Positions 6,708 to 22,229 of a DNA stretch of 25,598 nucleotides are shown piece after piece. Positions within the stretch are counted from its first letter, which is position 1; each line of letters opens with the position of its first letter. The DNA is from a virus (Duplodnaviria > Heunggongvirae > Uroviricota > Caudoviricetes), in the IMG/VR virus record IMGVR_UViG_2606217107_000001; one strand, 5' to 3'. Both the position numbers and the translations under genes were made by a program. The notes beneath the pieces were generated by a model, which saw only the letters and a list, made by a program, of their open reading frames with translations, had not been told where the DNA came from and searched no databases.

Positions 6708-6710
6708 CCG

Positions 6711-8062: not shown

Positions 8063-8265
8063 TGAAGACCTTTGCGCTACAGGGCGACACGCTCGACGCC
8101 ATTTGTGTCCGGTATTACGGGCGCACTGAGGGCGTGGTTGAGACCGTGCTCGCCGCAAATCCGGGACTGGCTGAACTGGGTGCGGTGCTGCCACACGGCA
8201 CCGCCGTCGAACTGCCCGACGTTCAGACCGCGCCCGTGGCTGAAACTGTCAATCTGTGGGAGTAA
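8062..8265 (+). CDS. X: Tail protein X (P2 gpX-like), 67 aa
   Basis: Inside ORF 7993..8265; start at ATG 8062 (MKTFALQGDTLDAICVRYYG...), overlapping the L stop. Confidence 0.85.
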   Translation: MKTFALQGDTLDAICVRYYGRTEGVVETVLAANPGLAELGAVLPHGTAVELPDVQTAPVAETVNLWE

Positions 8266-8268
8266 CGC

Positions 8269-8550
8269 ATGACAGCAGAAGAAAAAAGCGTCCTGTCGCT
8301 TTTCATGATTGGGGTGCTGATTGTTGTCGGCAAGGTGCTTGCCGGTGGTGAACCCATCACCCCGCGTCTGTTTATCGGGCGCATGTTGCTCGGTGGTTTT
8401 GTCTCGATGGTTGCCGGTGTTGTTCTGGTGCAGTTTCCTGACCTGTCACTGCCTGCAGTGTGCGGCATCGGCTCCATGCTGGGTATCGCCGGTTATCAGG
8501 TGATTGAGATTGCCATTCAGCGCCGTTTTAAGGGCAGGGGGAAACAGTAA
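8269..8550 (+). CDS. Y: Holin (P2 gpY-like), 93 aa
   Basis: ORF 8269..8550; hydrophobic membrane-spanning segments and charged C-terminus (RRFKGRGKQ); first gene of the lysis cassette. Confidence 0.9.
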   Translation: MTAEEKSVLSLFMIGVLIVVGKVLAGGEPITPRLFIGRMLLGGFVSMVAGVVLVQFPDLSLPAVCGIGSMLGIAGYQVIEIAIQRRFKGRGKQ

Positions 8551-9047
8551 TGCCGGTAATTAACACGCATCAGAATATCGCGGCCTTTCTCGACATGCTG
8601 GCCGTGTCCGAAGGGACGGCGAATCATCCGCTGACGAAAAACCGGGGCTATGACGTGATAGTCACCGGACTGGACGGGAAGCCGGAAATTTTCACCGACT
8701 ACAGTGACCACCCGTTCGCACATGGCCGACCGGCGAAGGTGTTTAACCGTCGCGGTGAAAAATCCACGGCCTCCGGTCGCTATCAGCAACTTTACCTGTT
8801 CTGGCCGCATTACCGCAAACAGCTTGCCCTGCCGGATTTCAGTCCGTTGTCACAGGACAGACTTGCCATTCAGTTGATCCGCGAACGCGGTGCACTGGAT
8901 GACATCCGGGCGGGACGCATTGAGCGCGCCATTTCACGCTGTCGCAATATCTGGGCGTCCCTGCCGGGTGCCGGTTACGGTCAGCGTGAGCATTCACTGG
9001 AAAAACTGGTCACCGTCTGGCGTACCGCTGGCGGCGTACCGGCTTAA
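8550..9047 (+). CDS. K: Endolysin (P2 gpK-like), 165 aa
   Basis: ORF 8550..9047; follows the holin; protein MPVINTHQNIAAFLDMLAVSEGT... recognised as P2 K. Confidence 0.9.
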   Translation: MPVINTHQNIAAFLDMLAVSEGTANHPLTKNRGYDVIVTGLDGKPEIFTDYSDHPFAHGRPAKVFNRRGEKSTASGRYQQLYLFWPHYRKQLALPDFSPLSQDRLAIQLIRERGALDDIRAGRIERAISRCRNIWASLPGAGYGQREHSLEKLVTVWRTAGGVPA

Positions 9048-9061
9048 ACGGAGTAAACACC

Positions 9062-9487
9062 ATGAAGAAATTATCCCTTTCACTGATGCTGAACGTGTCG
9101 CTGGCGCTGATGCTGGCACTGTCCCTGATTTATCCGCAGAGCGTGGCCGTCAGTTTTGTCGCTGCCTGGGCGATTCTGGCGACGGTTATCTGTGTGGTTG
9201 CCGGTGGTGTCGGCATGTATGCCACTGAGTATGTGCTGGAACGCTACGGGCGGGAGCTTCCGCCGGAATCGCTGGCCGTGAAGATTGTCACGTCGCTGTT
9301 TTTGCAGCCGGTGCCGTGGCGCAGACGGGCAGCGGCTCTGGTGGTGATGGTGGCGACGTTTATCTCGCTGGTCGCCGCCGGATGGATTTTTACCGCGCTG
9401 ATTTATCTCGTGGCGTCACTGTTTTTCCGGCTGATACGTACGGCCTGCCGTCAGCGTTTTGGGGGGCGGGAACCATGTCAAAGCTGA
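9062..9487 (+). CDS. lysA: Lysis timing protein LysA-like membrane protein, 141 aa
   Basis: ORF 9062..9487; multiple hydrophobic helices; position and length as for P2 lysA. Confidence 0.85.
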   Translation: MKKLSLSLMLNVSLALMLALSLIYPQSVAVSFVAAWAILATVICVVAGGVGMYATEYVLERYGRELPPESLAVKIVTSLFLQPVPWRRRAAALVVMVATFISLVAAGWIFTALIYLVASLFFRLIRTACRQRFGGREPCQS

Positions 9488-9900
9488 TGATTGTGCTGGT
9501 TGTGTTGTTATCACTGGCGGTGGTAGGTCTGTTTCTGGCGAAGCATGAAAACGCCAGCCTGCGCACCTCACTGGACAGGGCGAGCAACGTCGCCAGCGGG
9601 CAGCAGACGACCATCACCATGCTGAAAAATCAGCTTCATGTTGCGCTCACCAGGGCAGACAAAAACGAGCTGGCGCAGGTGGCACTGCGTCAGGAACTGG
9701 AGAACGCCGCGAAGCGTGAAGCACAGCGCGAGAAAACCATCACGAGGTTACTCAATGAAAACGAAGATTTTCGCCGCTGGTATGGTGCTGACCTGCCTGA
9801 TGCTGTGCGCCGGTTGCACCAGCGCCCCGCCTGCACCGACGCCAGTGATTGTCGCCAACGCCTGCCCGAAAGTGAGCCTTTGCCCGATGCCGGGCAGTGA
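9475..9900 (+). CDS. lysB: Inner-membrane spanin (Rz-like; P2 LysB-like), 141 aa
   Basis: Inside ORF 9316..9900; start at ATG 9475 (MSKLMIVLVVLLSLAVVGLFLA...); N-terminal transmembrane helix then a helical domain. Confidence 0.85.
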   Translation: MSKLMIVLVVLLSLAVVGLFLAKHENASLRTSLDRASNVASGQQTTITMLKNQLHVALTRADKNELAQVALRQELENAAKREAQREKTITRLLNENEDFRRWYGADLPDAVRRLHQRPACTDASDCRQRLPESEPLPDAGQ

Positions 9901-10045
9901 CCCGGAGACGAACGGCGATTTAAGTGCCGATATCCGACAGCTTGAGAACGCGCTGGCACGCTGTGCCAGCCAGGTAAAAATGATTAAACACTGTCAGGAC
10001 GAAAACGATGCTCAAACCCGACAGCCTGCGCAGGGCGCTGACTGA
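9755..10045 (+). CDS. lysC: Outer-membrane lipoprotein spanin (Rz1-like; P2 LysC-like), 96 aa
   Basis: Inside ORF 9638..10045; start at ATG 9755 with GAGG upstream; signal peptide MKTKIFAAGMVLTCLMLCAGC with lipobox-like cysteine, proline-rich; out of frame inside and beyond the 3' end of lysB. Confidence 0.8.
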   Translation: MKTKIFAAGMVLTCLMLCAGCTSAPPAPTPVIVANACPKVSLCPMPGSDPETNGDLSADIRQLENALARCASQVKMIKHCQDENDAQTRQPAQGAD

Positions 10046-10475
10046 TGCCGTCACGGTGCTGAAAACCAGTCCCGAGATGCTGCGGATATTCGTTGATAAC
10101 GGGAGTATTGCCTCCACGCTGGCGACGTCGTTGTCATTCGAAAAGCGTTACACGCTCAATGTGATTGTGACCGACTTTACCGGTGATTTTGACCTGCTCA
10201 TCGTGCCGGTGCTGGCGTGGCTGCGGGAAAATCAGCCCGACATCATGACCACCGACGCAGGCCAGAAAAAGGGCTTCACGTTTTATGCGGACATCAACAA
10301 TGACAGCAGCTTTGATATCAGCATCAGCCTGATGCTGACCGAGCGCACGCTGGTCAGTGAGGTGGACGGCGCGCTGCATGTGAAGAATATCCCGGAACCC
10401 CCGCCGCCGGAGCCGGTCACCCGCCCGATGGAGCTTTATATCAATGGTGAACTGGTGAGTAAGTGGGATGAATGA
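10008..10475 (+). CDS. R: Tail completion protein (P2 gpR-like), 155 aa
   Basis: ORF 10008..10475; position and length as for P2 gpR. Confidence 0.88.
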   Translation: MLKPDSLRRALTDAVTVLKTSPEMLRIFVDNGSIASTLATSLSFEKRYTLNVIVTDFTGDFDLLIVPVLAWLRENQPDIMTTDAGQKKGFTFYADINNDSSFDISISLMLTERTLVSEVDGALHVKNIPEPPPPEPVTRPMELYINGELVSKWDE

Positions 10476-10920
10476 GTTTAAGCGTTTTGAAGACCGGCTG
10501 ACCGGACTGATTGAGTCGCTGTCACCGTCAGGGCGTCGGCGACTGAGCGCCGAACTGGCGAAACGTCTGCGTCAGAGTCAGCAGCGCCGGGTGATGGCAC
10601 AGAAAGCCCCGGACGGCACACCCTACGCACCACGCCAGCAGCAGAGCGCCAGAAAAAAGACCGGTCGCGTTAAGCGAAAAATGTTTGCGAAACTTATCAC
10701 CAGTCGTTTTTTGCATATCCGCGCCAGCCCGGAGCAGGCATCAATGGAGTTTTACGGCGGGAAGTCGCCGAAAATCGCCAGTGTGCATCAGTTCGGTCTG
10801 TCGGAAGAAAACCGGAAAGACGGTAAGAAAATTGATTATCCGGCGCGTCCTCTGCTCGGCTTTACCGGTGAGGATGTGCAGATGATTGAAGAGATTATCC
10901 TGGCTCACCTCGACCGTTAG
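10468..10920 (+). CDS. S: Tail completion protein (P2 gpS-like), 150 aa
   Basis: ORF 10468..10920; overlaps the R stop; position and length as for P2 gpS. Confidence 0.88.
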   Translation: MNEFKRFEDRLTGLIESLSPSGRRRLSAELAKRLRQSQQRRVMAQKAPDGTPYAPRQQQSARKKTGRVKRKMFAKLITSRFLHIRASPEQASMEFYGGKSPKIASVHQFGLSEENRKDGKKIDYPARPLLGFTGEDVQMIEEIILAHLDR

Positions 10921-10986
10921 TTGTGCCATTCCCGACACCTCATCGGCACATTGCCGCCGGTATGACCCGGCGGCATCCTTCCCGTT
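10921..10986 (+). promoter_or_regulatory. Intergenic region expected to hold the late promoter for the V-W-J-I-H-G operon
   Basis: 66-bp gap between S and V, the position of the P2 late promoter P_V; motif not confirmed. Confidence 0.35.
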
Positions 10987-11622
10987 ATGAACACTCTCGC
11001 AAATATTCAGGAACTCGCGCGCGCACTGCGCAACATGATCCGCACCGGCATTATCGTCGAAACCGACCTTAACGCCGGTCGCTGCCGTGTGCAGACCGGC
11101 GGCATGTGCACCGACTGGCTTCAGTGGCTGACCCATCGCGCCGGACGTTCGCGCACATGGTGGGCACCTTCCGTGGGGGAACAGGTGCTGATTCTGGCCG
11201 TGGGCGGTGAACTCGACACGGCGTTCGTTCTGCCGGGGATTTATTCCGGCGATAACCCCGCGCCGTCTGCGTCGGCGGATGCCCTGCATATCCGTTTCCC
11301 TGACGGGGCGGTGATTGAGTATGAACCCGAAACCAGTGCACTCACGGTAAGCGGAATTAAAACGGCCAGCGTGACGGCTTCTGATTCTGTTACTGCCACG
11401 GTGCCGGTGGTCATGGTGAAAGCGTCAACCCGCATCACCCTGGACACCCCGGAGGTGGTCTGCACCAACAGACTGATTACCGGCACGCTGGAAGTGCAGA
11501 AGGGCGGGACGATGCGCGGCAACATTAAACATACCGGCGGTGAACTCTCATCAAACGGTAAGGTACTGCATACCCATAAACACCCCGGCGACAGCGGCGG
11601 CACAACCGGGAGTCCTCTATGA
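10987..11622 (+). CDS. V: Baseplate central spike protein (P2 gpV-like), 211 aa
   Basis: ORF 10987..11622; recognised as P2 gpV. Confidence 0.9.
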   Translation: MNTLANIQELARALRNMIRTGIIVETDLNAGRCRVQTGGMCTDWLQWLTHRAGRSRTWWAPSVGEQVLILAVGGELDTAFVLPGIYSGDNPAPSASADALHIRFPDGAVIEYEPETSALTVSGIKTASVTASDSVTATVPVVMVKASTRITLDTPEVVCTNRLITGTLEVQKGGTMRGNIKHTGGELSSNGKVLHTHKHPGDSGGTTGSPL

Positions 11623-11966
11623 CAGCGCGTTATCTTGGAATGAATCGCAGTGATGGCCTGACTGTCACTGACCTTGAGCATATCAGCCAGAGTATCGGCG
11701 ATATCCTGCGCACGCCGGTCGGCTCACGGGTGATGCGTCGTGATTACGGCTCATTGCTGGCGTCAATGATTGACCAGCCGCAGACCCCGGCGCTTGAGTT
11801 GCAGATTAAGGTCGCCTGTTACATGGCGGTGCTGAAATGGGAACCCCGCGTCACCCTGTCATCCGTCACCACTGAGCGCAGTTTTGACGGGCGAATGACG
11901 GTCACGTTAACCGGCCAGCACAACGACACCGGCCAGCCACTTTCGTTAACCATCCCTGTGAGTTGA
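11619..11966 (+). CDS. W: Baseplate wedge protein (P2 gpW-like), 115 aa
   Basis: ORF 11619..11966; GGGAG ribosome-binding site; overlaps the V stop. Confidence 0.9.
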   Translation: MTARYLGMNRSDGLTVTDLEHISQSIGDILRTPVGSRVMRRDYGSLLASMIDQPQTPALELQIKVACYMAVLKWEPRVTLSSVTTERSFDGRMTVTLTGQHNDTGQPLSLTIPVS

Positions 11967-11970
11967 AACC

Positions 11971-12879
11971 ATGCCGATTATCGACCTGAACCAGCTACCC
12001 GCACCGGATGTGGTCGAGGAGCTGGACTTTGAAACCATTCTTGCCGAACGCAAGGCGACACTGATTTCCCTTTACCCGGAAGACCAGCAGGAGGCGGTTG
12101 CCCGTACCCTGACGCTGGAATCCGAGCCTCTCGTCAAACTGCTGGAGGAAAATGCTTATCGTGAGCTTATCTGGCGTCAGCGTGTGAATGAGGCCGCACG
12201 GGCGGTAATGCTGGCCTGTGCCGCCGGTAATGACCTTGATGTGATTGGTGCCAATTACAACACCACGCGCCTGATTATCACCCCGGCAGATGATTCGACC
12301 ATCCCGCCGACACCGGCAGTGATGGAGTCTGACACCGATTATCGTCTGCGTATTCAGCAGGCGTTTGAGGGCTTAAGCGTCGCCGGGTCGGTGGGATCCT
12401 ATCAGTATCATGGTCGCAGTGCCGACGGGCGTGTCGCGGATATTTCTGTCACCAGTCCGTCTCCGGCCTGCGTCACCATCTCTGTGCTGTCACGTGAAAA
12501 TAACGGTGTGGCATCCGAAGACCTGCTGGCGGTGGTGCGCAACGCCCTTAATGGTGAGGACGTCAGACCGGTGGCCGACCGTGTGACCGTGCAGTCTGCC
12601 GTCATCGTTGAATACCAGATAAATGCCACGCTTTACCTTTATCCTGGCCCCGAAAGCGAACCCATTCGCGCTGCCGCCGTGAAAAAACTGGAAGCGTATA
12701 TCACGGCACAGCACCGGCTGGGGCGCGACATCCGACTGTCTGCCATTTATGCCGCTTTGCATGTGGAAGGCGTGCAGCGTGTCGAGCTGGCCGCACCACT
12801 GGCCGACATTGTGCTCAACAGTACGCAGGCGTCTTTCTGTACCGAATACCGCGTCGTGACCGGAGGCTCGGATGAGTGA
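11971..12879 (+). CDS. J: Baseplate assembly protein (P2 gpJ-like), 302 aa
   Basis: ORF 11971..12879; recognised as P2 gpJ. Confidence 0.9.
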   Translation: MPIIDLNQLPAPDVVEELDFETILAERKATLISLYPEDQQEAVARTLTLESEPLVKLLEENAYRELIWRQRVNEAARAVMLACAAGNDLDVIGANYNTTRLIITPADDSTIPPTPAVMESDTDYRLRIQQAFEGLSVAGSVGSYQYHGRSADGRVADISVTSPSPACVTISVLSRENNGVASEDLLAVVRNALNGEDVRPVADRVTVQSAVIVEYQINATLYLYPGPESEPIRAAAVKKLEAYITAQHRLGRDIRLSAIYAALHVEGVQRVELAAPLADIVLNSTQASFCTEYRVVTGGSDE

Positions 12880-13402
12880 TTCGCGCCTGCTGCCGACCGG
12901 CTCATCACCGCTTGAAGTTGCCGCCGCAAAAGCCTGTGCGGAAATTGAAAAAACGCCGGTCAGTATTCGTGAACTGTGGAACCCGAACACCTGTCCGGCA
13001 AATCTGCTGCCGTGGCTGGCGTGGGCGTTTTCGGTCGACAGGTGGGATGAAAAGTGGCCGGAAGCGATAAAACGCGCCGTTATCCGCGATGCCTATTTCA
13101 TCCACTGTCATAAAGGCACGATAGGTGCAATCCGGCGTGTGGTGGAGCCGCTCGGCTATCTCATCAACGTGACGGAGTGGTGGGAAAACAGTGACCCGCC
13201 CGGCACCTTCCGGCTTGATATTGGTGTACTGGAAAGCGGTATCACAGAGGCAATGTATCAGGAAATGGAACGGCTGATTGCCGATGCCAAACCTGCAAGC
13301 CGCCACCTTATTGGCCTGAACATTACCCGGGACATTCCCGGCTACCTGTTCGCCGGTGGTGTGGCTTACGACGGCGATGTAATTACGGTTTACCCCGGAT
13401 AA
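12872..13402 (+). CDS. I: Baseplate protein (P2 gpI-like), 176 aa
   Basis: ORF 12872..13402; GGAGG ribosome-binding site; overlaps the J stop. Confidence 0.9.
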   Translation: MSDSRLLPTGSSPLEVAAAKACAEIEKTPVSIRELWNPNTCPANLLPWLAWAFSVDRWDEKWPEAIKRAVIRDAYFIHCHKGTIGAIRRVVEPLGYLINVTEWWENSDPPGTFRLDIGVLESGITEAMYQEMERLIADAKPASRHLIGLNITRDIPGYLFAGGVAYDGDVITVYPG

Positions 13403-13412
13403 GTGAGGAATA

Positions 13413-15707
13413 ATGAGCACAAAATTCAAAACCGTTATCACCACTGCCGGTGCAGCAAAGCTGGCAGCGGCAACCGCACCGGGAGGGCGGAAGGTCAACA
13501 TTACCACGATGGCCGTCGGGGATGGCGGTGGTAAATTGCCTGTCCCGGATGCCGGACAGACCGGGCTTATCCACGAAGTCTGGCGACATGCGCTGAACAA
13601 AATCAGTCAGGACAAACGAAACAGTAATTATATTATCGCAGAACTGGTTATTCCGCCGGAGGTGGGCGGTTTCTGGATGCGTGAGCTTGGCCTGTACGAT
13701 GATGCGGGAACATTAATTGCCGTGGCGAACATGGCCGAAAGTTATAAGCCAGCTCTTGCCGAAGGCTCAGGGCGTTCGCAGACCTGTCGCATGGTCATCA
13801 TCGTCAGCAGTGTGGCCTCAGTGGCGCTGACCATTGACACCACAACGGTGATGGCAACGCAGGATTACGTTGATGACAAAATTGCAGAGCATGAACAGTC
13901 ACGACGTCACCCGGACGCCTCGCTGACCGCAAAAGGTTTTACTCAGTTAAGCAATGCGACCAACAGCACGTCTGAAACACTGGCCGCAACGCCGAAAGCG
14001 GTAAAGGCCGCGTATGATCTTGCTAACGGGAAATACACTGCGCAGGATGCCACCACAGCGCGAAAAGGCCTTGTCCAGCTCAGTAGCGCCACCAACAGCA
14101 CGTCTGAAACGCTCGCCGCAACACCAAAAGCGGTAAAGGCAGCATATGACCTTGCTAACGGGAAATACACTGCACAGGACGCCACCACAGCGCGAAAAGG
14201 TCTTGTCCAGCTCAGTAGCGCCACCAACAGCGATTCTGAAACGCTTGCGGCAACGCCAAAGGCGGTTAAGACAGCGTATGACCTTGCTAACGGGAAATAC
14301 ACTGCACAGGACGCCACCACGGCGCGGAAAGGTCTTGTTCAGCTCAGTAGCGCCACCAACAGTGATTCTGAAACGCTGGCCGCAACATCAAAAGCGGTGA
14401 AGTCTGCCTATGACAATGCTGAAAAACGTCTTCAGAAAGATCAGAACGGTGCGGATATTCCGGGAAAGGATACCTTCACGAAAAATATCGGTGCCTGTCG
14501 TGCTTATAGCGGCGCTTTGAGCACTGAAGCCGGAAACTGGACAACCGCTCAGTTTATTGAATGGCTGGATTCCCGTGGTGCATTTAATCATCCGTACTGG
14601 ATGTGCAAAGGCTCCTGGTCATATGCAAATAACAAAATCATTACGGATACCGGATGTGGTGATATCCACCTGGCTGGTTGTGTCGTCGAGGTCATGGGAA
14701 CTAAATCTGCAATCACTATCCGAGTGACCACGCCGACAACATCAAGTGGTGGCGGTACAACCAGCGCGCAATTCACTTACATTAATCATGGGGACGGCTA
14801 CTCCCCCGGCTGGCGTCGTGACTGGAATCGTCAGGGCGACTCAATGACCGGAACGATTAATCAGGATGGCGGAAGCCAGAATGCCTATATGTCTACGGCC
14901 TTATGTTCAGGCACCAGAGGCGGCAAAAAATATCTCAGAAAGTTTCGTGGTGGAGAAGGAGACACTATCTGGCATGAAACAGTACAGGGCGGGGTAATTC
15001 GCTGGGCGACAGGAAACTATGACGCTCAGGAAGAATTATCACTCAGCTCCGCTTATGGTCTTCGTTCTAGAGGTGAAATTACATCACTCAGTGCTAATGG
15101 TCTGCGCATTGCTTATGGCAATTATGGATTCTTTATCAGGAATGATGGTGGCAGCACATATTTAATGCTGACGGCCTCTGGTGATAAATTTGGGACATGG
15201 AACGGTTTAAGGCCGCTGACTATCAATAACGCTAATGGCGGAGTGTCAATGGGGCATGGCCTGAGTGTTACTGGTGATATTGCCTCAAGTACCAAAGTAC
15301 GTGCCGGTAGCGGGAAAAAGTTCACGGTCAGCAGCAGCAATACATCCACGAAGGAAGCCGCATTCAATTTGTGGGGAAACTCAAGTCGTCCGGTGGTGGC
15401 TGAATTAGGTGATGATGCAGGCTGGCATTTTTACAGTCAGAGAAATACAGATAACAGCATCACTTTTGCTGTTAACGGTCAGGTATCACCATCTAACTAC
15501 AGTAATTTTGATTCACGTTATGTACGCGATATCCGGCTTGGGACTCGAGTTGTCCAGACCATGCAGAAAGGGGTGATGTATGAGAAAGCAGGGCACGTAA
15601 TTACCGGGCTTGGTATTGTCGGTGAAGTCGATGGTGATGACCCCGCAGTATTCAGACCAATACAAAAATACATCAATGGAACATGGTATAACGTCGCACA
15701 GGTGTAA
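13413..15707 (+). CDS. H: Tail fibre protein (P2 gpH-like) with expanded internal repeats and a divergent distal domain, 764 aa
   Basis: ORF 13413..15707; P2 H-like N-terminus (MSTKFKTVITTAGAAKLAAAT...). Contains ~3.6 tandem copies of a 44-aa unit. Longer than the ~669 aa I recall for P2 H; distal part is lower in GC. Confidence 0.9.
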   Translation: MSTKFKTVITTAGAAKLAAATAPGGRKVNITTMAVGDGGGKLPVPDAGQTGLIHEVWRHALNKISQDKRNSNYIIAELVIPPEVGGFWMRELGLYDDAGTLIAVANMAESYKPALAEGSGRSQTCRMVIIVSSVASVALTIDTTTVMATQDYVDDKIAEHEQSRRHPDASLTAKGFTQLSNATNSTSETLAATPKAVKAAYDLANGKYTAQDATTARKGLVQLSSATNSTSETLAATPKAVKAAYDLANGKYTAQDATTARKGLVQLSSATNSDSETLAATPKAVKTAYDLANGKYTAQDATTARKGLVQLSSATNSDSETLAATSKAVKSAYDNAEKRLQKDQNGADIPGKDTFTKNIGACRAYSGALSTEAGNWTTAQFIEWLDSRGAFNHPYWMCKGSWSYANNKIITDTGCGDIHLAGCVVEVMGTKSAITIRVTTPTTSSGGGTTSAQFTYINHGDGYSPGWRRDWNRQGDSMTGTINQDGGSQNAYMSTALCSGTRGGKKYLRKFRGGEGDTIWHETVQGGVIRWATGNYDAQEELSLSSAYGLRSRGEITSLSANGLRIAYGNYGFFIRNDGGSTYLMLTASGDKFGTWNGLRPLTINNANGGVSMGHGLSVTGDIASSTKVRAGSGKKFTVSSSNTSTKEAAFNLWGNSSRPVVAELGDDAGWHFYSQRNTDNSITFAVNGQVSPSNYSNFDSRYVRDIRLGTRVVQTMQKGVMYEKAGHVITGLGIVGEVDGDDPAVFRPIQKYINGTWYNVAQV
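13944..14417 (+). repeat. Tandem 132-bp in-frame coding repeat (~3.6 copies) inside tail fibre gene H
   Basis: gctaacggg recurs at 14022, 14154 and 14286 (period 132 bp); protein unit QLS(S/N)ATNS(T/D)SETLAATPKAVK(A/T)AYDLANGKYTAQDATTARKGLV repeats at residues ~178, 222, 266 and 310. Confidence 0.9.
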
Positions 15708-15710
15708 TTT

Positions 15711-16238
15711 ATGCAGCATTTAAAAAATATTACTGCGGGTAATCCAAAAACTGTTGCCCAATATCAACTGACAAAAAATTTTGATGTTATCTGGTTATGG
15801 TCCGAAGAGGGAAAAAACTGGTATGAGGAAGTAAGTAATTTTCAGGAAGACACGATAAAGATTGTTTACGACGAGAATAATATAATTGTCGGCATCACCA
15901 GAGATGCTTCAACGCTCAACCCTGAAGGTTATAGCGTTGTCGAGGTTCCTGATATTACCGCCAACCGACGTGCTGATGACTCAGGTAAATGGATGTTTAA
16001 GGATGGTGCCGTGATTAAGCGGATTTATACGGCAGACGAACAGCAACAACAGGCAGAATCACAAAAGGTCGCGTTACTTTCCGAAGCGGAAAGCGTTATT
16101 CAGCCACTGGAGCGCGCTGTCAGGCTGAACATGGCAACAGATGAGGAGCGTAGCCGACTGGAAGCATGGGAACGCTACAGTGTTCTGGTCAGCCGTGTGA
16201 ATCCTGCAAATCCTGAATGGCCGGAAATGCCGCAATAA
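15711..16238 (+). CDS. G: Tail fibre assembly chaperone (P2 gpG-like), 175 aa
   Basis: ORF 15711..16238; directly downstream of H; C-terminal part resembles the conserved tail fibre assembly domain. Confidence 0.85.
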
Positions 16239-16389
16239 GTTGTATGAGCTGACATATCTATAGCACAGAGTAAAGCCTAATCTGACAGTCTGCTCTGTGC
16301 AAGGAGCGGACATTACCTAACACATTGGTAACCTTCACAGATTTACGCGTTCTACATAGTTAGCATTGTATCTGATGAGTTATCATGTT

Positions 16390-17169
16390 TTAAAATATCC
16401 AACTGATAAATCCACCTGAATACTTTTCACTAATTTTGATTGCATAAAGATCATGAAGAGTTATAAATAAATCATTATCTTCTTTGAAAATTAACTCCTC
16501 ATATTCTGCCATTATCAAATTATGTTGTGTTGTTAGTTTAGATATGTTATCTATTTCACTGGCAAGCATGGATTTGTTTACATTGGTGTGTGGATCCATG
16601 GCAATATATTTCCGCATCAATGGAATTAGTTGATTAGGGTCTATATTTTTTGCATTTTCCTTTGCTTTTTTTTGTCTTTCTGAATAGATGGAGTTAATTG
16701 TGTTAGTGTGTTTTTTCGCCAGTCTCTTAAACTCTGGATATGAACCAGTAACTAATGCAAGCTCTTCGTACTTAAGGAACAAATCGATATTGCATTTTTT
16801 TACCGTTATTTCAAGATCTTCAACTCTTTTTTTTAACTCTTCATTTGTTTTAATAAGAGACATCGGGAGAACTTCATAATGTTGTCCTAATTCTGAATCA
16901 GGGCTCATTGCCATATGTACTATTTCATTATACATGAGCTGATAAGAAGCAGATAACTCTCCATACTTTAGAAATAGTTCATTGTGTGAAGATGAACAAG
17001 AACTTTGTAATTTCATCATTGGTCTAAAGTAATCCTTTATAAACTCCTCCTGAAGATCTTGGTCTTTTTTGTAGCTCTCTAGGATTCCAGCAAAAAGAAA
17101 TGATCCTAAAGATATAGAGATTATGGATATTAGCAATTGACTAAGGAATGATTGTGTTTCATTACTCAT
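16390..17169 (-). CDS. Hypothetical membrane-anchored protein encoded by an AT-rich insert at the Z/fun position; candidate exclusion or defence gene, 259 aa
   Basis: ORF 16390..17169 minus; AGGA ribosome-binding site 6 nt before the ATG; N-terminal hydrophobic helix (FLSQLLISIISISLGSFLFAGIL); internally repeated LFLKY(G/E)EL motif; region is far lower in GC than its flanks; opposite strand to the late operons. Function not recognised. Confidence 0.7.
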   Translation of the reverse strand: MSNETQSFLSQLLISIISISLGSFLFAGILESYKKDQDLQEEFIKDYFRPMMKLQSSCSSSHNELFLKYGELSASYQLMYNEIVHMAMSPDSELGQHYEVLPMSLIKTNEELKKRVEDLEITVKKCNIDLFLKYEELALVTGSYPEFKRLAKKHTNTINSIYSERQKKAKENAKNIDPNQLIPLMRKYIAMDPHTNVNKSMLASEIDNISKLTTQHNLIMAEYEELIFKEDNDLFITLHDLYAIKISEKYSGGFISWIF

Positions 17170-17446
17170 AAAACATCCTTAAAAAATAACACGAAAAGTG
17201 ACTCCTGACAGGGAAGAAACGACAGGTCGGAAACAAACTTAACTGATGAGTTAGCCGTAGTCCAGAACCTTGTTTGAACACTTAGTGTGACTGTTTGCAT
17301 CTCAGGAATTTGTGCCAATAACATTTGAATCCTTATAATTTATTTAAATCAAATTTAGTTACTCGCTCAAAGCAGGCTGTCAGATTTGATAGCATTTGGG
17401 CTATGTAAATTGTCAGGCGGAAAATGAGTGAGTACAAATCAAGACT

Positions 17447-17474
17447 GGCGGGCGAATTGCCCGCCTTTTCTTTA
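17447..17474 (+). terminator. Intrinsic terminator (plus strand) between the AT-rich insert and FI
   Basis: ggcgggc (17447..17453), loop gaatt, gcccgcc (17459..17465), followed by ttttctttat; T-run only on the plus strand. Confidence 0.6.
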
Positions 17475-17569
17475 TCTGTTGTTTCATCCACTGACCAGCT
17501 AGGTCAAATAGCGTCTCATGCACTGCCCAACAGACAATAGTTGCACCCATTAACCACGGAGTTAAACGG
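17475..17569 (+). promoter_or_regulatory. Region expected to hold the late promoter for the FI-FII-E-T-U-D operon
   Basis: Non-coding stretch between the terminator and the FI start, the position of P2 P_F; motif not confirmed. Confidence 0.35.
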
Positions 17570-18760
17570 ATGAGTGACTATCATCACGGCGTGCAGGTGC
17601 TGGAGATTAACGACGGCACCCGCGTCATTTCCACCGTATCCACTGCCATTGTCGGCATGGTCTGCACGGCCAGCGATGCGGATGCGGAAACCTTCCCCCT
17701 CAATAAACCTGTGCTGATTACCAATGTGCAGAGCGCAATTGCAAAGGCTGGTAAAAAAGGCACGCTGGCGGCATCGTTGCAGGCCATCGCCGACCAGTCA
17801 AAACCGGTCACCGTTGTCGTGCGTGTGGAAGACGGCACCGGCGACGACGAGGAAACGAAACTCGCGCAGACCGTTTCCAATATCATCGGCACCACCGACG
17901 AAAACGGTCAGTACACCGGACTGAAAGCCCTGCTGGCGGCGGAGTCGGTAACCGGTGTTAAACCGCGTATTCTCGGCGTGCCGGGACTGGACACCAAAGA
18001 GGTGGCTGTTGCACTGGCATCAGTCTGTCAGAAGTTGCGCGCTTTCGGGTATATCAGCGCATGGGGCTGTAAAACCATTTCCGAGGTGAAAGCCTACCGT
18101 CAGAATTTCAGCCAGCGTGAGCTGATGGTCATCTGGCCGGATTTCCTCGCATGGGATACGGTCACCAGTACCACCGCCACCGCGTATGCCACCGCCCGTG
18201 CGCTGGGGCTGCGCGCTAAAATCGACCAGGAGCAGGGCTGGCATAAAACGCTGTCCAATGTCGGGGTGAACGGTGTTACCGGCATCAGCGCCTCTGTATT
18301 CTGGGATTTGCAGGAGTCCGGCACCGATGCTGACCTGCTTAACGAGTCAGGCGTCACAACGCTGATTCGCCGCGACGGTTTTCGCTTCTGGGGTAACCGT
18401 ACCTGCTCTGATGACCCGCTGTTCCTCTTTGAAAACTACACCCGCACCGCGCAGGTGCTGGCTGACACGATGGCTGAGGCGCACATGTGGGCGGTGGACA
18501 AGCCCATCACCGCAACGCTGATTCGCGACATCGTTGACGGCATCAATGCCAAATTCCGTGAGCTGAAAACAAACGGCTATATCGTGGATGCGACCTGCTG
18601 GTTCAGCGAAGAATCCAACGATGCGGAAACCCTCAAGGCCGGAAAACTGTATATCGACTACGACTATACCCCGGTGCCTCCTCTTGAAAACCTGACCCTG
18701 CGCCAGCGTATTACCGATAAATACCTGGCAAATCTGGTCACCTCGGTTAACAGCAATTAA
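17570..18760 (+). CDS. FI: Tail sheath protein (P2 gpFI-like), 396 aa
   Basis: ORF 17570..18760; GGAG ribosome-binding site; recognised as P2 FI. Confidence 0.93.
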   Translation: MSDYHHGVQVLEINDGTRVISTVSTAIVGMVCTASDADAETFPLNKPVLITNVQSAIAKAGKKGTLAASLQAIADQSKPVTVVVRVEDGTGDDEETKLAQTVSNIIGTTDENGQYTGLKALLAAESVTGVKPRILGVPGLDTKEVAVALASVCQKLRAFGYISAWGCKTISEVKAYRQNFSQRELMVIWPDFLAWDTVTSTTATAYATARALGLRAKIDQEQGWHKTLSNVGVNGVTGISASVFWDLQESGTDADLLNESGVTTLIRRDGFRFWGNRTCSDDPLFLFENYTRTAQVLADTMAEAHMWAVDKPITATLIRDIVDGINAKFRELKTNGYIVDATCWFSEESNDAETLKAGKLYIDYDYTPVPPLENLTLRQRITDKYLANLVTSVNSN

Positions 18761-18772
18761 GGAGCCTGACCG

Positions 18773-19291
18773 ATGGCAATGCCGCGCAAACTCAAGTTAA
18801 TGAACGTCTTTCTGAACGGCTACAGCTATCAGGGCGTCGCGAAGTCCGTCACGCTGCCAAAACTGACCCGTAAGCTCGAAAACTATCGCGGTGCGGGGAT
18901 GAACGGCAGCGCACCGGTAGACCTCGGCCTTGATGACGATGCGCTGTCAATGGAGTGGTCGCTCGGTGGCTTCCCGGATTCGGTTATCTGGGAGCTTTAC
19001 GCCGCAACCGGTGTGGATGCCGTACCGATTCGTTTTGCAGGCTCTTACCAGCGCGACGATACCGGCGAAACGGTGGCCGTCGAGGTGGTCATGCGTGGAC
19101 GTCAGAAAGAAATCGACACCGGCGAGGGCAAACAGGGAGAAGACACCGAGTCGAAAATCTCCGTGGTCTGCACCTATTTCCGGCTGACGATGGACGGCAA
19201 GGAGCTGGTCGAAATCGACACCATCAACATGATTGAGAAGGTGAACGGCGTCGACCGGCTGGAGCAACACCGCCGCAATATCGGCCTGTGA
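18773..19291 (+). CDS. FII: Tail tube protein (P2 gpFII-like), 172 aa
   Basis: ORF 18773..19291; AAGGAG ribosome-binding site; recognised as P2 FII. Confidence 0.93.
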   Translation: MAMPRKLKLMNVFLNGYSYQGVAKSVTLPKLTRKLENYRGAGMNGSAPVDLGLDDDALSMEWSLGGFPDSVIWELYAATGVDAVPIRFAGSYQRDDTGETVAVEVVMRGRQKEIDTGEGKQGEDTESKISVVCTYFRLTMDGKELVEIDTINMIEKVNGVDRLEQHRRNIGL

Positions 19292-19298
19292 TTTTCAT

Positions 19299-19319
19299 CC
19301 GGTCAGCCTGGCTGACCGG
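19299..19319 (+). other. Perfect 9-bp stem, 3-nt loop hairpin between FII and E (possible attenuator or RNA-stability element)
   Basis: ccggtcagc ctg gctgaccgg; no T-run follows, so not a canonical terminator. Confidence 0.3.
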
Positions 19320-19347
19320 TTAACCCTGATTCATAAGTGAGAAAACC

Positions 19348-19623
19348 ATGAACAAAGAAAATGTCATTACCCTGGACAATCCGGTCAAACGTGGTGAGCA
19401 GGTTATCGAACAGGTCACGCTGATGAAACCCAGTGCCGGGACGCTGCGCGGTGTCAGTCTGGCAGCGGTCGCGAACTCCGAAGTCGATGCACTGATTAAG
19501 GAGCTGCCGCGCATGACGGCACCGATGCTGACCGAGCAGGAAGTCGCCGCGCTGGAACTGCCTGACCTTGTGGCGCTGGCCGGTAAGGTGGTCGGTTTTT
19601 TGTCGCCGAACTCGGTGCAGTGA
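19348..19623 (+). CDS. E: Tail assembly chaperone (P2 gpE-like), 91 aa
   Basis: ORF 19348..19623; position and length as for P2 gpE. Confidence 0.9.
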   Translation: MNKENVITLDNPVKRGEQVIEQVTLMKPSAGTLRGVSLAAVANSEVDALIKELPRMTAPMLTEQEVAALELPDLVALAGKVVGFLSPNSVQ

Positions 19624-19775
19624 CGTTTCCAAAAAATCTGTCGGTCGATGACCTGATGGCGGATGTGGCAGTGATATTTCACTGGCCGCCATCAGAACTG
19701 TATCCCATGAGCCTGACCGAACTCATCACATGGCGCGAAAAGGCGCTCCGGCGAAGCGGAAACACGAATGAGTAA
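19348..19775 (+). CDS. E: Tail assembly chaperone E+E' fusion made by a programmed -1 frameshift at T TTT TTG (19596..19602), 142 aa
   Basis: Slippery heptamer gg-tttttt-g near the 3' end of E. The -1 frame stays open to a stop at 19773..19775 (...FPKNLSVDDLMADVAVIFHWPPSELYPMSLTELITWREKALRRSGNTNE), overlapping the T start. Product length matches recalled P2 E+E'. Confidence 0.75.
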
Positions 19776-22215
19776 CAATGTAAAATTACAGGTATTGCTC
19801 AGGGCTGTTGACCAGGCATCCCGCCCGTTTAAATCCATCCGCACAGCGAGCAAGTCGCTGTCGGGGGATATCCGGGAAACACAAAAATCACTGCGCGAGC
19901 TGAACGGTCACGCATCCCGTATTGAGGGATTCCGCAAGACCAGCGCACAGCTCGCCGTGACTGGTCATGCACTTGAAAAGGCACGGCAGGAAGCCGAAGC
20001 CCTTGCCACACAGTTTAAAAATACCGAACGTCCGACCCGTGCTCAGGCGAAAGTGCTGGAATCCGCAAAGCGTGCGGCGGAGGACTTACAGGCGAAATAT
20101 AACCGCCTGACGGACTCCGTTAAACGCCAGCAGCGGGAACTGGCCGCTGTGGGAATTAATACCCGCAATCTTGCACATGATGAGCAGGGACTGAAAAACC
20201 GTATCAGTGAAACCACCGCACAGCTTAACCGTCAGCGTGACGCACTGGCGCGTGTCAGTGCACAACAGGCAAAACTTAACGCAGTAAAACAGCGTTATCA
20301 GGCAGGCAAGGAACTGGCCGGAAATATGGCCTCAGTGGGCGCTGCCGGTGTGGGGATTGCGGCGGCGGGAACGATGGCCGGAGTTAAGTTGCTGATGCCC
20401 GGTTATGAGTTTGCGCAGAAAAACTCAGAATTGCAGGCCGTGCTCGGAGTGGCAAAAGACTCCGCCGAAATGACCGCACTACGCAAACAGGCGCGCCAGC
20501 TCGGTGACAACACCGCCGCCTCGGCGGATGATGCGGCCGGTGCACAGATAATCATCGCGAAAGCGGGTGGGGATGTTGATGCCATTCAGGCGGCAACGCC
20601 GGTCACGCTGAATATGGCGCTGGCGAACCGCCGCACGATGGAAGAAAACGCCGCCCTGCTGATGGGGATGAAATCCGCCTTTCAGCTTTCAAACGATAAG
20701 GTCGCTCATATCGGGGATGTTCTCTCCATGACGATGAACAAAACCGCCGCCGATTTTGACGGCATGAGCGATGCGCTGACCTATGCCGCACCTGTGGCAA
20801 AAAATGCCGGTGTCAGCATTGAAGAAACCGCCGCAATGGTCGGGGCGCTGCATGATGCAAAAATCACAGGCTCAATGGCGGGGACGGGAAGCCGTGCCGT
20901 GTTAAGTCGCCTGCAGGCACCGACGGGAAAAGCATGGGATGCACTCAAAGAGCTTGGCGTGAAAACCTCAGACAGTAAGGGGAATACCCGACCAGTATTT
21001 ACCATTCTGAAAGAAATGCAGGCCAGCTTTGAGAAAAACCGGCTCGGTACTGCCCAGCAGGCTGAATACATGAAAACTATTTTCGGGGAGGAGGCCAGCT
21101 CAGCCGCCGCCGTGCTGATGACTGCCGCCTCAACCGGAAAGCTGGACAAACTGACCGCTGCGTTTAAAGCCTCAGACGGGAAGACCGCCGAGCTGGTAAA
21201 TATCATGCAGGACAACCTCGGCGGTGACTTTAAGGAGTTTCAGTCCGCTTATGAGGCGGTGGGGACAGACCTGTTTGACCAGCAGGAAGGCGCGCTACGT
21301 AAGCTCACGCAGACGGCCACAAAGTATGTGTTAAAACTCGACGGCTGGATACAGAAAAACAAATCACTGGCGTCAACCATTGGCCTCATTGCCGGTGGTG
21401 CGCTGGCGCTTACTGGCATCATCGGTGCAATTGGTCTTGTAGCCTGGCCGGTTATCACCGGCATCAATGCCATCATCGCGGCAGCAGGCGCAATGGGGGC
21501 AATCTTCACGACGGTTGGTAGTGCCGTTATGACGGCCATCGGGGCGATTAGCTGGCCGGTTGTGGCTGTGGTGGCCGCCATTGTCGCCGGGGCGTTGCTT
21601 ATCCGTAAATACTGGGAGCCTGTCAGCGCATTCTTTGGCGGTGTGGTTGAAGGGCTGAAAGCGGCATTTGCGCCGGTGGGGGAACTGTTCACGCCACTGA
21701 AGCCGGTGTTTGACTGGCTGGGCGAAAAGTTACAGGCCGCGTGGCAGTGGTTTAAAAACCTGATTGCCCCGGTCAAAGCCACCCAGGACACCCTGAACCG
21801 TTGCCGTGATACTGGCGTCATGTTCGGGCAGGCACTGGCTGACGCGCTGATGCTGCCGCTTAATGCGTTCAACAAACTGCGCAGCGGTATTGACTGGGTA
21901 CTGGAAAAGCTCGGGGTCATCAACAAAGAGTCAGACACACTTGACCAGACCGCCGCCAGAACTCATGTCGCCACGTATGGCACCGGTGGTTATATTCCGG
22001 CGACCAGCTCTTATGCAGGCTATCAGACTTATCAGCCGGTCACGGCACCGGCTGGCCGCTCTTATGTAGACCAGAGTAAAAACGAATATCACATCAGCCT
22101 GACGGGTGGTACTGAGCCGGGGACACAGCTTGACCGCCAGTTACAGGATGCGCTCGAAAAATACGAGCGGGATAAACGTGCGCGCGCCCGTGCCAGCATG
22201 ATGCATGACGGTTAA
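19768..22215 (+). CDS. T: Tail tape measure protein (P2 gpT-like), 815 aa
   Basis: ORF 19768..22215; long helical protein with a glycine/alanine-rich hydrophobic central segment; position as for P2 T. Confidence 0.92.
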   Translation: MSNNVKLQVLLRAVDQASRPFKSIRTASKSLSGDIRETQKSLRELNGHASRIEGFRKTSAQLAVTGHALEKARQEAEALATQFKNTERPTRAQAKVLESAKRAAEDLQAKYNRLTDSVKRQQRELAAVGINTRNLAHDEQGLKNRISETTAQLNRQRDALARVSAQQAKLNAVKQRYQAGKELAGNMASVGAAGVGIAAAGTMAGVKLLMPGYEFAQKNSELQAVLGVAKDSAEMTALRKQARQLGDNTAASADDAAGAQIIIAKAGGDVDAIQAATPVTLNMALANRRTMEENAALLMGMKSAFQLSNDKVAHIGDVLSMTMNKTAADFDGMSDALTYAAPVAKNAGVSIEETAAMVGALHDAKITGSMAGTGSRAVLSRLQAPTGKAWDALKELGVKTSDSKGNTRPVFTILKEMQASFEKNRLGTAQQAEYMKTIFGEEASSAAAVLMTAASTGKLDKLTAAFKASDGKTAELVNIMQDNLGGDFKEFQSAYEAVGTDLFDQQEGALRKLTQTATKYVLKLDGWIQKNKSLASTIGLIAGGALALTGIIGAIGLVAWPVITGINAIIAAAGAMGAIFTTVGSAVMTAIGAISWPVVAVVAAIVAGALLIRKYWEPVSAFFGGVVEGLKAAFAPVGELFTPLKPVFDWLGEKLQAAWQWFKNLIAPVKATQDTLNRCRDTGVMFGQALADALMLPLNAFNKLRSGIDWVLEKLGVINKESDTLDQTAARTHVATYGTGGYIPATSSYAGYQTYQPVTAPAGRSYVDQSKNEYHISLTGGTEPGTQLDRQLQDALEKYERDKRARARASMMHDG

Positions 22216-22229
22216 GGAGGTGACGAAAA

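Follow-up and report, generated by a model that had tools for sequence, protein, structure and literature searches.

Distal tail fibre and chaperone genes of a P2-like phage as a mosaic of modules shared among enterobacterial myoviruses

Introduction

Within the late genes of a P2-like phage, the sequence becomes visibly poorer in GC from the distal part of the tail fibre gene H through the chaperone gene G, and the question raised by this locus is whether the change marks a host-range cassette that was exchanged horizontally as one block and that brought with it a receptor specificity different from that of P2. This was the original prediction, made for positions 14400-16238 of a stretch of 25,598 nucleotides of Caudoviricetes DNA (IMG/VR record IMGVR_UViG_2606217107_000001), hereafter called the window. 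Our analysis supports a related but more composite picture: the region very probably comprises the distal half of H together with the chaperone gene G from a Peduovirus (a P2-like phage or prophage) of an E. coli-type host, and is assembled from modules of a pool shared by enterobacterial myoviruses. The pattern as such is long known and is present nearly letter for letter in sequenced phages.

Results

Gene order and overall identity of the fibre gene

The features of the region are collected in Table 1. Gene I (PF09684, 12872-13402) precedes H and G, and the order is colinear with V-W-J-I-H-G of P2. H is 99.2% identical at the amino acid level, over 764 of 764 residues, to H of Yersinia phage vB_YpM_46 (Peduovirus YPM46). 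Its Pfam matches comprise Phage_tail_fib (PF12571, residues 1-151, E = 2.5e-58), four stretches of Phage_fiber_2 (PF03406, E = 8.2e-77) and Gp34_trimer (PF21446, residues 541-604). The block of H, G and orf259 is 97.2% identical in E. coli strain GB089, the best match among complete E. coli genomes, none of which holds an exact copy of the window; a match was found in 2136 E. coli genomes. Two copies of IS4 flank the element, and its early region lies outside the window.

Table 1. Features of the H-G region and of the adjoining cargo slot (positions in the window)
Feature	Position	Strand	Basis
H, tail fibre protein, 764 aa, intact	13413..15707	+	ORF; Pfam matches; identity to vB_YpM_46 H
H N-terminal baseplate-attachment (collar) domain, P2 type	13413..13919	+	P2 identity; PF12571
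Tandem shaft repeats of 132 nt (44 aa)	13959..14414	+	TRF, 3.5 copies
Mu S'-like (G(-) orientation) shaft module, H residues 340-488	14430..14876	+	No similarity to P2 H
T4-like long tail fibre / Mu S module, H residues 489-628	14877..15296	+	PF21446; PDB; tblastn
P2-type sub-tip, H residues 629-696	15297..15500	+	P2 H identity
Fibre tip of pro147/L-413C/Mu S type, H residues 697-764	15501..15707	+	Identities; contains HR2
G, tail fibre assembly protein (Tfa), 175 aa, P2 G/Mu U/P1 U subfamily	15711..16238	+	Caudo_TAP PF02413
Conserved spacer after G, left border of cargo slot	16239..16315	+	Similarity to P2, YpM46 and 12474III ends at 16310-16315
Variable cargo slot, P2 Z/fun position, true GC minimum	16316..17361	.	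GC 31-35%
orf259, uncharacterised 259-aa protein	16390..17169	-	ORF; GC 31%, GC3 0.27
Conserved region upstream of FI, right border of slot	17362..17569	+	Similarity resumes at 17362-17363

Base composition

The GC content is 47.0% in 14400-16238 versus 56.1% in the window minus 14400-17569. Given that windows of the same size (1,839 nt) placed elsewhere have a mean of 56.3% (SD 1.8, minimum 51.7, n = 376), the region lies about 5 SD below. The lowering is also seen at the codon level: GC3 ranges from 0.58 to 0.73 across the late genes (Q to I, FI to D), versus 0.45 in H residues 340-628, 0.45 in H 629-764, 0.38 in G 1-90 and 0.48 in G 91-175. The GC content is 55% (GC3 0.58) in the N-terminal domain of H, 49% in H 340-628 and 45% in G. 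The predicted drop was therefore confirmed, and its proposed start near 14400 is sound, since the 132-nt repeats stop at 14414 and the 97% identity to P2 stops at 14138. Its proposed end at 16238 did not hold, as the trough continues and deepens to 31-35% across 16239-17400.

The profile of P2 is alike, with 48.9% in H 252-533, 45.3% in H 534-669 and 43.8% in G, and because P2 has the same drop, low GC is no mark of difference from P2. A GC content of 44-47% in the block of H tip and G is found as well in P2, L-413C, Mu-like D108, P1 and P88, which makes six phages on three unrelated backbones, with flanking genes of 45-60% GC. Low GC (44-49%) thus appears to be a trait of the shared module pool that moves with the modules, and therefore P2 shows it too.

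The proximal half of H is of P2 type

From 10987 to 14138 the nucleotide sequence is 96.9% identical to that of P2, and residues 1-251 of H are 94.8% identical to P2 H, so the N-terminus is indeed conserved, as had been proposed. Beyond 14138, identity to P2 runs on to ~14420 only by way of extra repeat copies: the motif SSATNSxSETLAATxKAVK is present in four copies in H, in two in P2 and in three in P88. The P2-type sequence stops within the last repeat motif, where P2 goes on TVMDETNKKAPL and the window goes on SAYDNAEKRLQKDQNGADIP.

The distal half of H is a mosaic

As judged from sequence comparison, H consists of five or more pieces of mosaic origin and not of one swapped cassette. Across H and G, breakpoints were located at ~14430, 14823, 15315, 15498 and 16040, and the nearest relative switches sharply from block to block between YpM46, L-413C, vB_EcoM-12474III and pro147, each being 97-100% identical in its block. 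Nucleotide identity to P2, which is 96.6-97.6% in the backbone, falls to none in H at 14430-15314, returns at 81.9% in the tip and G, is again absent in the cargo slot and then resumes at 96.6%. In tblastn searches and against the PDB, pieces of the distal H matched both S' and S of Mu, as well as gp34 of T4 and gp37 of T4-like phages.

Residues 340-488 are 71% identical to S' of Mu and D108, and PDB 8ju3 (Mu S/S') matches residues 334-487; at the nucleotide level, phage vB_EcoM-12474III is 95.6% identical up to 14823. The following module (residues 489-628) shares 49-64% amino acid identity with fibres of Serratia phage X20, Enterobacter phage PF-CE2 and many Tequatrovirus gp34 proteins, and structures of T4 gp34 (4uxe, 5nxf) match residues 550-624, while that of Mu S (5yvq_A) matches residues 548-763. 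A junction motif, DNAxxRLxKxxNGADI, is common to H, L-413C, 12474III and D108 S.

Similarity to P2 at the nucleotide level returns at 15315, with 70-73% per 60-nt block. In the sub-tip (residues 629-696), 51 of 68 residues are identical to P2 H, against only 12/68 in L-413C, pro147 and D108 S. In the last 68 residues (697-764) the nearest relative is another one, with 67 identical residues in pro147, 65 in L-413C, 63 in D108 S and 55 in P2; this breakpoint, at 15498-15510, is common to several comparators. The tip contains HR2 (residues 716-746, nt 15558-15650), which is identical to pro147 at 31/31 positions and to P2 at 21/31. Identity of the H tip to S is 55.6% in D108 and 50.6% in P1. The original prediction held that the C-terminal half of H does not resemble P2 H, and this is correct for residues ~340-628, where no similarity to P2 was found, but not for the last 136 residues (629-764), which are 78% identical to residues 534-669 of P2 H. 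With its PF12571 domain, its PF03406 repeats, its place in the operon and its homologous tip, the protein of which the distal part is discussed here would, by sequence, qualify as a P2-type gpH fibre.

Gene G encodes a conserved chaperone

The stop codon of H (15705-15707) directly precedes the start of G, so that the chaperone gene lies immediately downstream of the fibre gene. The Caudo_TAP domain (PF02413) covers residues 40-175 of G (E = 2.9e-35). Residues 1-175 align full-length to Mu U (PDB 5yvq_B, E = 3.4e-102, 89% identical), and the similarity to P2 G, Mu U and P1 U takes in the fibre-specific N-terminal domain besides the C-terminal helices common to all Tfa proteins; lambda Tfa aligns to residues 113-174 only. 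Identities of G are 96% to YpM46, 95% to L-413C, 91% to P2 (175/175 residues), 89.7% to P1 U and 88.6% to D108 U. A breakpoint lies within the gene near 16040, with YpM46-like sequence before it and L-413C-like sequence after it. The C-terminus of G had been singled out as conserved, which it is, yet the same applies to the whole protein. From the sequence comparison, G is not foreign, and the chaperone as well as the tip of the fibre belongs to the P2/Mu/P1 type.

No sign of an invertible switch

Mu and P1 carry related fibre genes on invertible segments, and the corresponding elements were sought. No serine invertase (gin/cin) lies by the fibre genes; the only ORF of at least 60 aa between G and FI is orf259, which has no Pfam match. 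As to gix/cix crossover sites, nothing in H-G agreed with the D108 gix region at more than 20/36 positions, which equals the background elsewhere in the window; the gix-aligned stretch in H, which lies within the common junction motif, is degenerate (about 14/26), and in Mu-like D108 the common junction motif overlaps an annotated gix-related inverted repeat. A second, inverted pair of fibre tip and chaperone (S'U') was not found among the ORFs downstream of G; S'-like sequence is instead fused in frame within H. A relic of an invertase switch was thus rejected, the search for D108 gix-like or P1 cix-like sites having stayed at background and no invertase ORF having been found. Lacking an invertase gene, a functional gix/cix site and an inverted S'U' pair, the element carries a fixed fibre and not a switch.

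The cargo slot downstream of G

The trough continues into a slot with no similarity to P2, YpM46 or 12474III, which is 95.6% identical to L-413C. Its borders, 16315 and 17362, are alike against all three of the former comparators. The conserved region on the right corresponds to the pF promoter region of P2, the annotation of which has a pF activator site, and a terminator-like hairpin is found at 17447-17465. At least six different cargos occupy the slot in relatives, where P2 carries fun(Z), 12474III a gene for a SMEK-domain protein and pro147 one for a metal-binding protein, besides further hypothetical proteins; in YpM46, it holds a different gene of 1350 nt. The Z/fun hotspot has been described before, as has the combination of tail-fibre/Tfa swapping with defence-like cargo at this locus (bioRxiv 10.1101/2024.10.15.618418, PMC6823313).

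The cargo gene, orf259, has no match in Pfam, PADLOC or NCBIfam, and by these searches a recognised anti-phage system was rejected as its identity. It falls in PHROG 7729 (function unknown), and the same gene is present in L-413C (NP_839869). A hydrophobic stretch at residues 12-30 corresponds to a predicted N-terminal transmembrane helix, residues C58, H62 and N63 are invariant, and the AlphaFold2 model (pLDDT 81) is an all-helical bundle, for which a Foldseek search of the PDB gave no match at E < 0.01 and returned generic helical proteins only (ClyA, BAR domains, designed bundles). A profile search of 1.84 billion representatives recovered 91 members, nearly all of ~260 aa and almost all standalone. 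In one distant relative, the protein is joined to a caspase-like Peptidase_C14 domain. A homologue in Vibrio directly follows a type I restriction-modification operon, and one in Teredinibacter has an IS110-family transposase as its neighbour and lies in a setting of small genes unrelated to each other.

Discussion

Origin of the region

The notion of a horizontally exchanged cassette was borne out in that distal H and G belong to a shared pool of fibres and chaperones, but the unity of the exchange was not. That distal H and G were swapped as a single host-range cassette, directed at a receptor other than that of P2, is in our view unlikely. It would account for the lack of P2 similarity in H 340-628, for the 10/31 HR2 positions that differ from P2, and for the isolation, on Y. 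pestis EV76, of phages whose H tip is identical. However, G keeps 91% identity to P2 G across its full length, the last 136 residues of H keep 78% identity to P2, and five or more breakpoints at which the nearest relative changes fall within the block, one of them inside G. The drop in GC gives this reading no advantage, as P2 has it as well. With regard to the receptor, the middle of H is just as foreign in L-413C, which nevertheless shares the Y. pestis LPS-core receptor with P2 vir1 (PMC3182234), and a swap of HR1 left the host range of P88 unchanged (PMC5285337).

The opposite view, in which the block was vertically inherited from a P2 ancestor and became divergent and AT-richer through fast diversifying selection, is highly improbable. 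The tip and G are recognisably homologous to those of P2 (81.9% at the nucleotide level), and the composition in P2 is the same, both of which this view would expect; but the sub-blocks are 97-100% identical to YpM46, L-413C and pro147 and only 58-87% to P2, with sharp switches between them, the matches of H 340-628 are with Mu S' and fibres of T4-like phages and not with P2 H, and G is 89-90% identical to U of P1 and of Mu-like phages in unrelated genomes. Little credence can likewise be given to the idea that the drop in GC stems not from ancestry but from the amino-acid make-up of fibrous proteins or from codon usage tied to their expression. H 340-628 is rich in Gly/Ser/Thr (GC2 0.54, GC1 0.47), as such an effect would predict, yet third codon positions drop most (GC3 0.38-0.48 vs 0.58-0.73), the drop extends through the non-fibrous chaperone G into unrelated cargo, and the N-terminal half of the same fibre retains the backbone GC. 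Amino-acid composition was rejected as the cause because the drop is largest at GC3.

Under the favoured reading, a P2-type fibre built from pooled modules, H would attach to the baseplate by its P2-type N-terminal domain, and the four 44-aa repeats would lengthen its shaft. Distal to these, a Mu S'-type shaft would be followed by a trimerisation module of T4 gp34/Mu S type, a P2-type sub-tip and the last 68 residues of pro147/L-413C/Mu S type. Mu U is known to be needed for the fibre tip to fold and to stay bound to the tip; this and the domain roles of Tfa proteins go back to North et al. 2019, as summarised in PMC9608196. By analogy with Mu S-U, the N-terminal domain of G may clamp the fibre tip, with the conserved C-terminal helices driving the folding of the trimer. 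The positions of the breakpoints suggest that the arrangement arose by repeated homologous recombination at short conserved stretches, namely the junction of repeats and NGADI motif, the conserved last 68 codons of H, gene G and the fixed borders of the Z/fun slot.

Receptor and host range

A receptor unlike that of P2 had been taken as implied by the foreign distal H, and this does not follow, because L-413C, whose H has a middle no less foreign and a tip of like kind, uses the receptor of P2: both L-413C and P2 vir1 need GlcNAc and heptoses of the Y. pestis LPS core (PMC3182234). By analogy with P2, L-413C, Mu G(+) and P1, the receptor is most probably the LPS core oligosaccharide. Swapping of HR2 altered the host range in P88/pro147, whereas that of HR1, the middle hypervariable region, did not in P88 (PMC5285337), and thus probably only the fine host range differs from that of P2, through residues 716-746. 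The fibre can be summarised as one of vB_YpM_46/P37 type with a host-range segment of pro147 type, and from this fibre type and HR2 allele, receptors of rough or LPS-core kind are therefore expected, with a difference from P2 in the strains plated only.

Significance of the cargo

P2 keeps its T5-exclusion gene fun(Z) in the slot that is held here by orf259. It is a tentative possibility that the low-GC tract forms one hyper-variable locus of two parts, tip with chaperone and cargo, and that orf259 founds an undescribed family of single-gene, membrane-anchored phage-exclusion proteins. Hints in this direction are the compactness of its family, the neighbourhoods of the Vibrio and Teredinibacter homologues and the fusion to a caspase-like domain. 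This gene is a candidate worth testing for phage exclusion and the only mildly novel item in the region. In addition, the region illustrates how fibre tips and their chaperones pass between unrelated enterobacterial phages, taking their base composition with them; otherwise, its value lies mainly in annotation.

Comparison with known systems

The closest phage is vB_YpM_46, with P37 and VB-YPM-4 also close: its nucleotide identity is 97.1% across 10987-16314, its 136-aa tip is 100% identical and its G 96%, but it differs in the 3' third of G (from ~16040) and in the cargo, both of which are of L-413C type here. Conversely, L-413C is 95.6% identical at the nucleotide level over 15498-18760 (H tip, G, orf259 and FI), while its H has a different and longer middle (913 aa) and lacks the P2-type sequence that occupies residues 629-696 here (12/68 identical). 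The published account of L-413C presents its H as a four-part mosaic with P2-like N- and C-termini and a foreign middle, a plan that the present H shares (Garcia 2008, as summarised in PMC7460101). P2 itself has the same order of V W J I H G, cargo and FI, with 95% identity in H 1-251, 78% in H 629-764 and 91% in G; it differs in having two shaft repeats instead of four, in HR2 (10/31 positions) and in H 340-628, which unrelated modules have replaced here.

Among phages on other backbones, the S-U and S'-U' pairs of Mu/D108 and S-U of P1 are related to the present genes through G (~89% identical to U), the H tip (51-56% to S) and H 340-488 (71% to S'). The G segment of Mu and the C segment of P1 are invertible, whereas S'-type and S-type pieces stand here in series in one protein, and P88 has an invertase, unlike the H-G element described here. 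H 550-624 is 47.9-64.3% identical to the trimerisation domain of T4-like gp34, a fold that H of P88 and of pro147 has also been noted to carry (PMC5285337); in T4, this domain is the end of the proximal half-fibre that joins gp35, whereas in the present H it sits as an internal module within a short fibre made of a single chain. Finally, the cargo slot resembles the Z/fun hotspot of P2 in its fixed borders and in its low-GC cargo on the opposite strand, with orf259 in the place of fun(Z).

Genomic setting

Judged by its sequence, the window is the late-gene region of a P2-like (Peduovirus) phage, with 96.6-97.6% nucleotide identity to P2 over 1553-10922, 10987-14138, and 17362-24197 and the P2 gene order (cos, then Q, P, O, N ... 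V, W, J, I, H, G, FI ... D, ogr). Pfam matches were Tail_P2_I for the gene I product, Phage_tail_fib, Phage_fiber_2 (four stretches), and Gp34_trimer for H, and Caudo_TAP for G; by homology, H would be a trimeric receptor-binding fiber and G its assembly (Tfa) chaperone. Nothing fills the second moron slot of P2 (that of orf30, 938 nt in P2), which lies between S and V; just 64 nt (10923-10986) remain between two P2-homologous blocks. The window includes none of the early region of the phage (int, C, cox, B, A). Two direct IS4 copies (1-1409 and 24198-25598, with 1-1384 identical to 24215-25598 at every base) lie on either side of the late region; the left inverted repeat of IS4 (TAATGCCGATCAGTTAAGG) begins at 24198, within the ogr terminator and ahead of attP, and 143 nt separate the end of the left copy (1409) from cos. 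This arrangement could represent a truncated prophage, an IS4-bounded composite, a circular molecule of 24,214 bp, or two simple insertions.

Features of the tail-fiber region and segments of H
Feature	Position	Size	Description
H	13413-15707	764 aa	tail fiber
H segment 1	residues 1-251, plus two extra repeat copies to about 339		P2 type, 95% aa
H segment 2	residues 340-488		no P2 counterpart; S' variable part of Mu and D108, 71% identity
H segment 3	residues 489-628		carries T4 gp34 C-terminal trimerization domain (PF21446; PDB 4uxe, 5nxf)
H segment 4	residues 629-696		P2 type, 51/68 identical
H segment 5	residues 697-764		pro147, L-413C, Mu S type (67/68, 65/68, 63/68 identical)
G	15711-16238	175 aa	chaperone
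orf259	16390-17169	259 aa	minus strand, opposite to H/G
FI	start 17570		

Base composition of the H-G region

The original prediction took 14400-16238, the distal part of H plus G, for a low-GC, horizontally exchanged host-range cassette. The lower GC was borne out (47.0% versus 56.1% for the rest); equal-sized windows outside 14400-17569 (n = 376) average 56.3%, with an SD of 1.8 and a minimum of 51.7. Third-position GC (GC3), 0.58-0.73 in other late genes, is 0.45 in both H 340-628 and H 629-764, and the two halves of G have 0.38 (first) and 0.48 (second), so the drop is real, large, and acts at the codon level. The start at 14400 is sound, since the 132-nt tandem repeats (13959-14414) end at 14414 and P2-type sequence stops inside the last one. 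As a limit of composition, 16238 is arbitrary: the trough falls further, to 31-35% GC, over 16239-17400.

Nor does composition set this phage apart from P2, which has a matching profile (H 252-533, 48.9%; H 534-669, 45.3%; G, 43.8%; fun(Z), 32.8%). Taken together, the final 408 nt of the fiber gene and the chaperone gene range from 44 to 47% GC across six sequences (the window, P2, L-413C, P88, Mu-like D108, and P1), despite neighboring genes of 45 to 60% in these same six. Therefore, the composition belongs to the module itself and travels with it, and the GC drop is no mark of difference between the window phage and P2.

Mosaic structure of H and G

Comparison with P2, L-413C, vB_YpM_46 (YpM46), vB_EcoM-12474III (12474III), pro147, P88, D108, and P1 divided H into at least five segments (see table). 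Segment 2 also matches the Mu S/S' structure 8ju3, and its region has 95.6% nucleotide identity to 12474III as far as 14823. Segment 3 shows 49-55% identity to distal long-tail-fiber proteins of Serratia phage X20 and Enterobacter phage PF-CE2 and overlaps the beginning of the stretch matched by Mu S (5yvq_A, residues 548-763). Segment 4 is identical to L-413C, pro147, or D108 S at only 12 of 68 positions, and segment 5 to P2 at 55 of 68. The expected departure of distal H from P2 holds for residues 340-628 and fails for 629-764, and the suggested search of other fiber families returned Mu S', Mu S, and T4 gp34 for pieces of H. Over its full length, H is 99.2% identical to that of Yersinia phage YpM46, and phages P37, VB-YPM-4, and vB_YpM_46 share its 136-aa tip at 100% identity.

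The motif SSATNSxSETLAATxKAVK occurs four times in H of the window, three times in P88, and twice in P2. Counted as 44-aa Phage_fiber_2 shaft repeats, there are four in the window, YpM46, and 12474III, three in P88, and two in P2 and pro147. As repeat number differs among close relatives, expansion of the repeats changes fiber length in a process separate from tip exchange.

G is conserved end to end, with identities ranging from 88.6% (D108 U) and 89.7% (P1 U) through 91% (P2 G) and 95% (L-413C G) up to 96% (YpM46 G), and the solved Mu U chain 5yvq_B aligns over its full length (E = 3.4e-102). For Tfa proteins of the lambda type, the match is confined to residues 113-174, which make up the pan-Tfa C-terminal helical domain; this domain is probably what had been recognized when the G C-terminus was called conserved; that conservation is genuine and extends to the whole protein. 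Within G, near 16040, the nearest relative switches from YpM46 (97-100% per 60-nt block before) to L-413C (98-100% after). In the conserved spacer 3' of G, at 16264-16301, GCACAGAG and CTCTGTGC form the arms of an 8-bp inverted repeat whose loop is 22 nt; a terminator scan from G to the end of orf259 found none.

Origin of the mosaic

Horizontal exchange is upheld, and a single cassette is not, given the segments of H and the extra breakpoint in G. The breakpoints coincide with stretches that are short and conserved. These are the last Phage_fiber_2 repeat with the junction motif DNAxxRLxKxxNGADI, common to the window, L-413C, 12474III, and D108 S; H codon 697, where four comparators change together (15498-15510); mid-G; and the fixed borders of the cargo slot, 16315 and 17362, which are the same against P2, YpM46, and 12474III. 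This pattern fits repeated homologous recombination, which may have operated within a shared pool, rather than a single swap.

In Mu-like phages, the gix inversion site and the junction motif overlap, and an invertible host-range switch was considered. Window 14472-14500 (KDQNGADIPGKDTFTKNIG) is in register with the D108 S gix crossover site; it is degenerate, at about 14/26 by hand count. No gix site in H-G scored above background and no invertase was found in the window, so the switch was rejected and the fiber is taken as fixed. In D108, where the stretches concerned are 1764-1799 and 4740-4800, a second copy of the motif lies inside Sv', just past gixR, which suggests that Sv' itself once had an Sc/Sv junction.

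Receptor and host range

According to North et al. 2019 as relayed in PMC9608196, the Tfa of Mu has a variable N-terminal domain that binds the fiber tip and conserved C-terminal helices that are responsible for trimerization. A receptor specificity unlike that of P2 had been proposed; no change of receptor class is demonstrated, and P2 vir1 and L-413C both need the terminal GlcNAc and heptoses of the Y. pestis LPS core (PMC3182234). The H middles of P2 and L-413C are unrelated. Between P88 and pro147, swapping H residues 716-746 (HR2) altered host range, and swapping the upstream hypervariable region HR1 left it unchanged (PMC5285337). H of P88 also has 764 aa, and in our alignment the 13 variable positions given in that study are exactly the P88/window differences. 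The window carries the HR2 allele of pro147 (31/31), from which P2 differs at 10 of 31 positions. Based on homology, these receptor data, the swaps, and the shared allele, the receptor would be the LPS core, the same class as in P2, with a strain-level host range probably nearer to pro147, L-413C, and YpM46 than to P2.

The cargo gene orf259

The variable slot 16316-17361 holds orf259 (GC 31%, GC3 0.27) at the position of P2 fun(Z). L-413C carries the same gene, with unknown function. The protein belongs to PHROG 7729 (function unknown) and had no match in Pfam, PADLOC, or NCBIfam. Residues 12-30 form a hydrophobic N-terminal helix, predicted to be transmembrane; the predicted model is confidently all-helical, and a fold search with it gave no informative match. 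It belongs to a small family, for which a word search gave 46 clusters and a set of 1.84 billion proteins held 91 representatives, nearly all close to 260 aa long, with invariant residues including R49-P50-M51, C58, H62, and N63. A Vibrio sagamiensis homologue lies directly 3' of hsdM-hsdS-hsdR, a type I restriction-modification operon, with an HNH gene nearby; one from Teredinibacter adjoins an IS110-family transposase amid small unrelated genes. In a single distant relative, the homologous part follows a caspase-like Peptidase_C14 domain within a fusion protein. We regard orf259 as a candidate phage-exclusion gene; the hints fit a membrane-acting exclusion effector and prove nothing.

Comparison with known systems

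Every element of the H/G feature has been described before, and the feature is already known. That P2 H and G have been exchanged horizontally with the fibers of Mu, P1, lambda, and T4 was reportedly described by Haggard-Ljungquist et al. in 1992. The exact H is found in sequenced phages, and the H-G pair occurs at 97-98% identity in several complete E. coli genomes. The mosaic H of L-413C is attributed to Garcia et al. 2008 in PMC7460101, and the gp34-like fold of P2-like fibers and the role of HR2 as host-range determinant are described in PMC5285337. The sole mildly novel lead is orf259, and its setting too has precedent: P2-like phages have three moron regions (PMC6823313), and the Z/fun hotspot is a mixed locus swapping tail-fiber/assembly genes and defense-like cargo (bioRxiv 10.1101/2024.10.15.618418).
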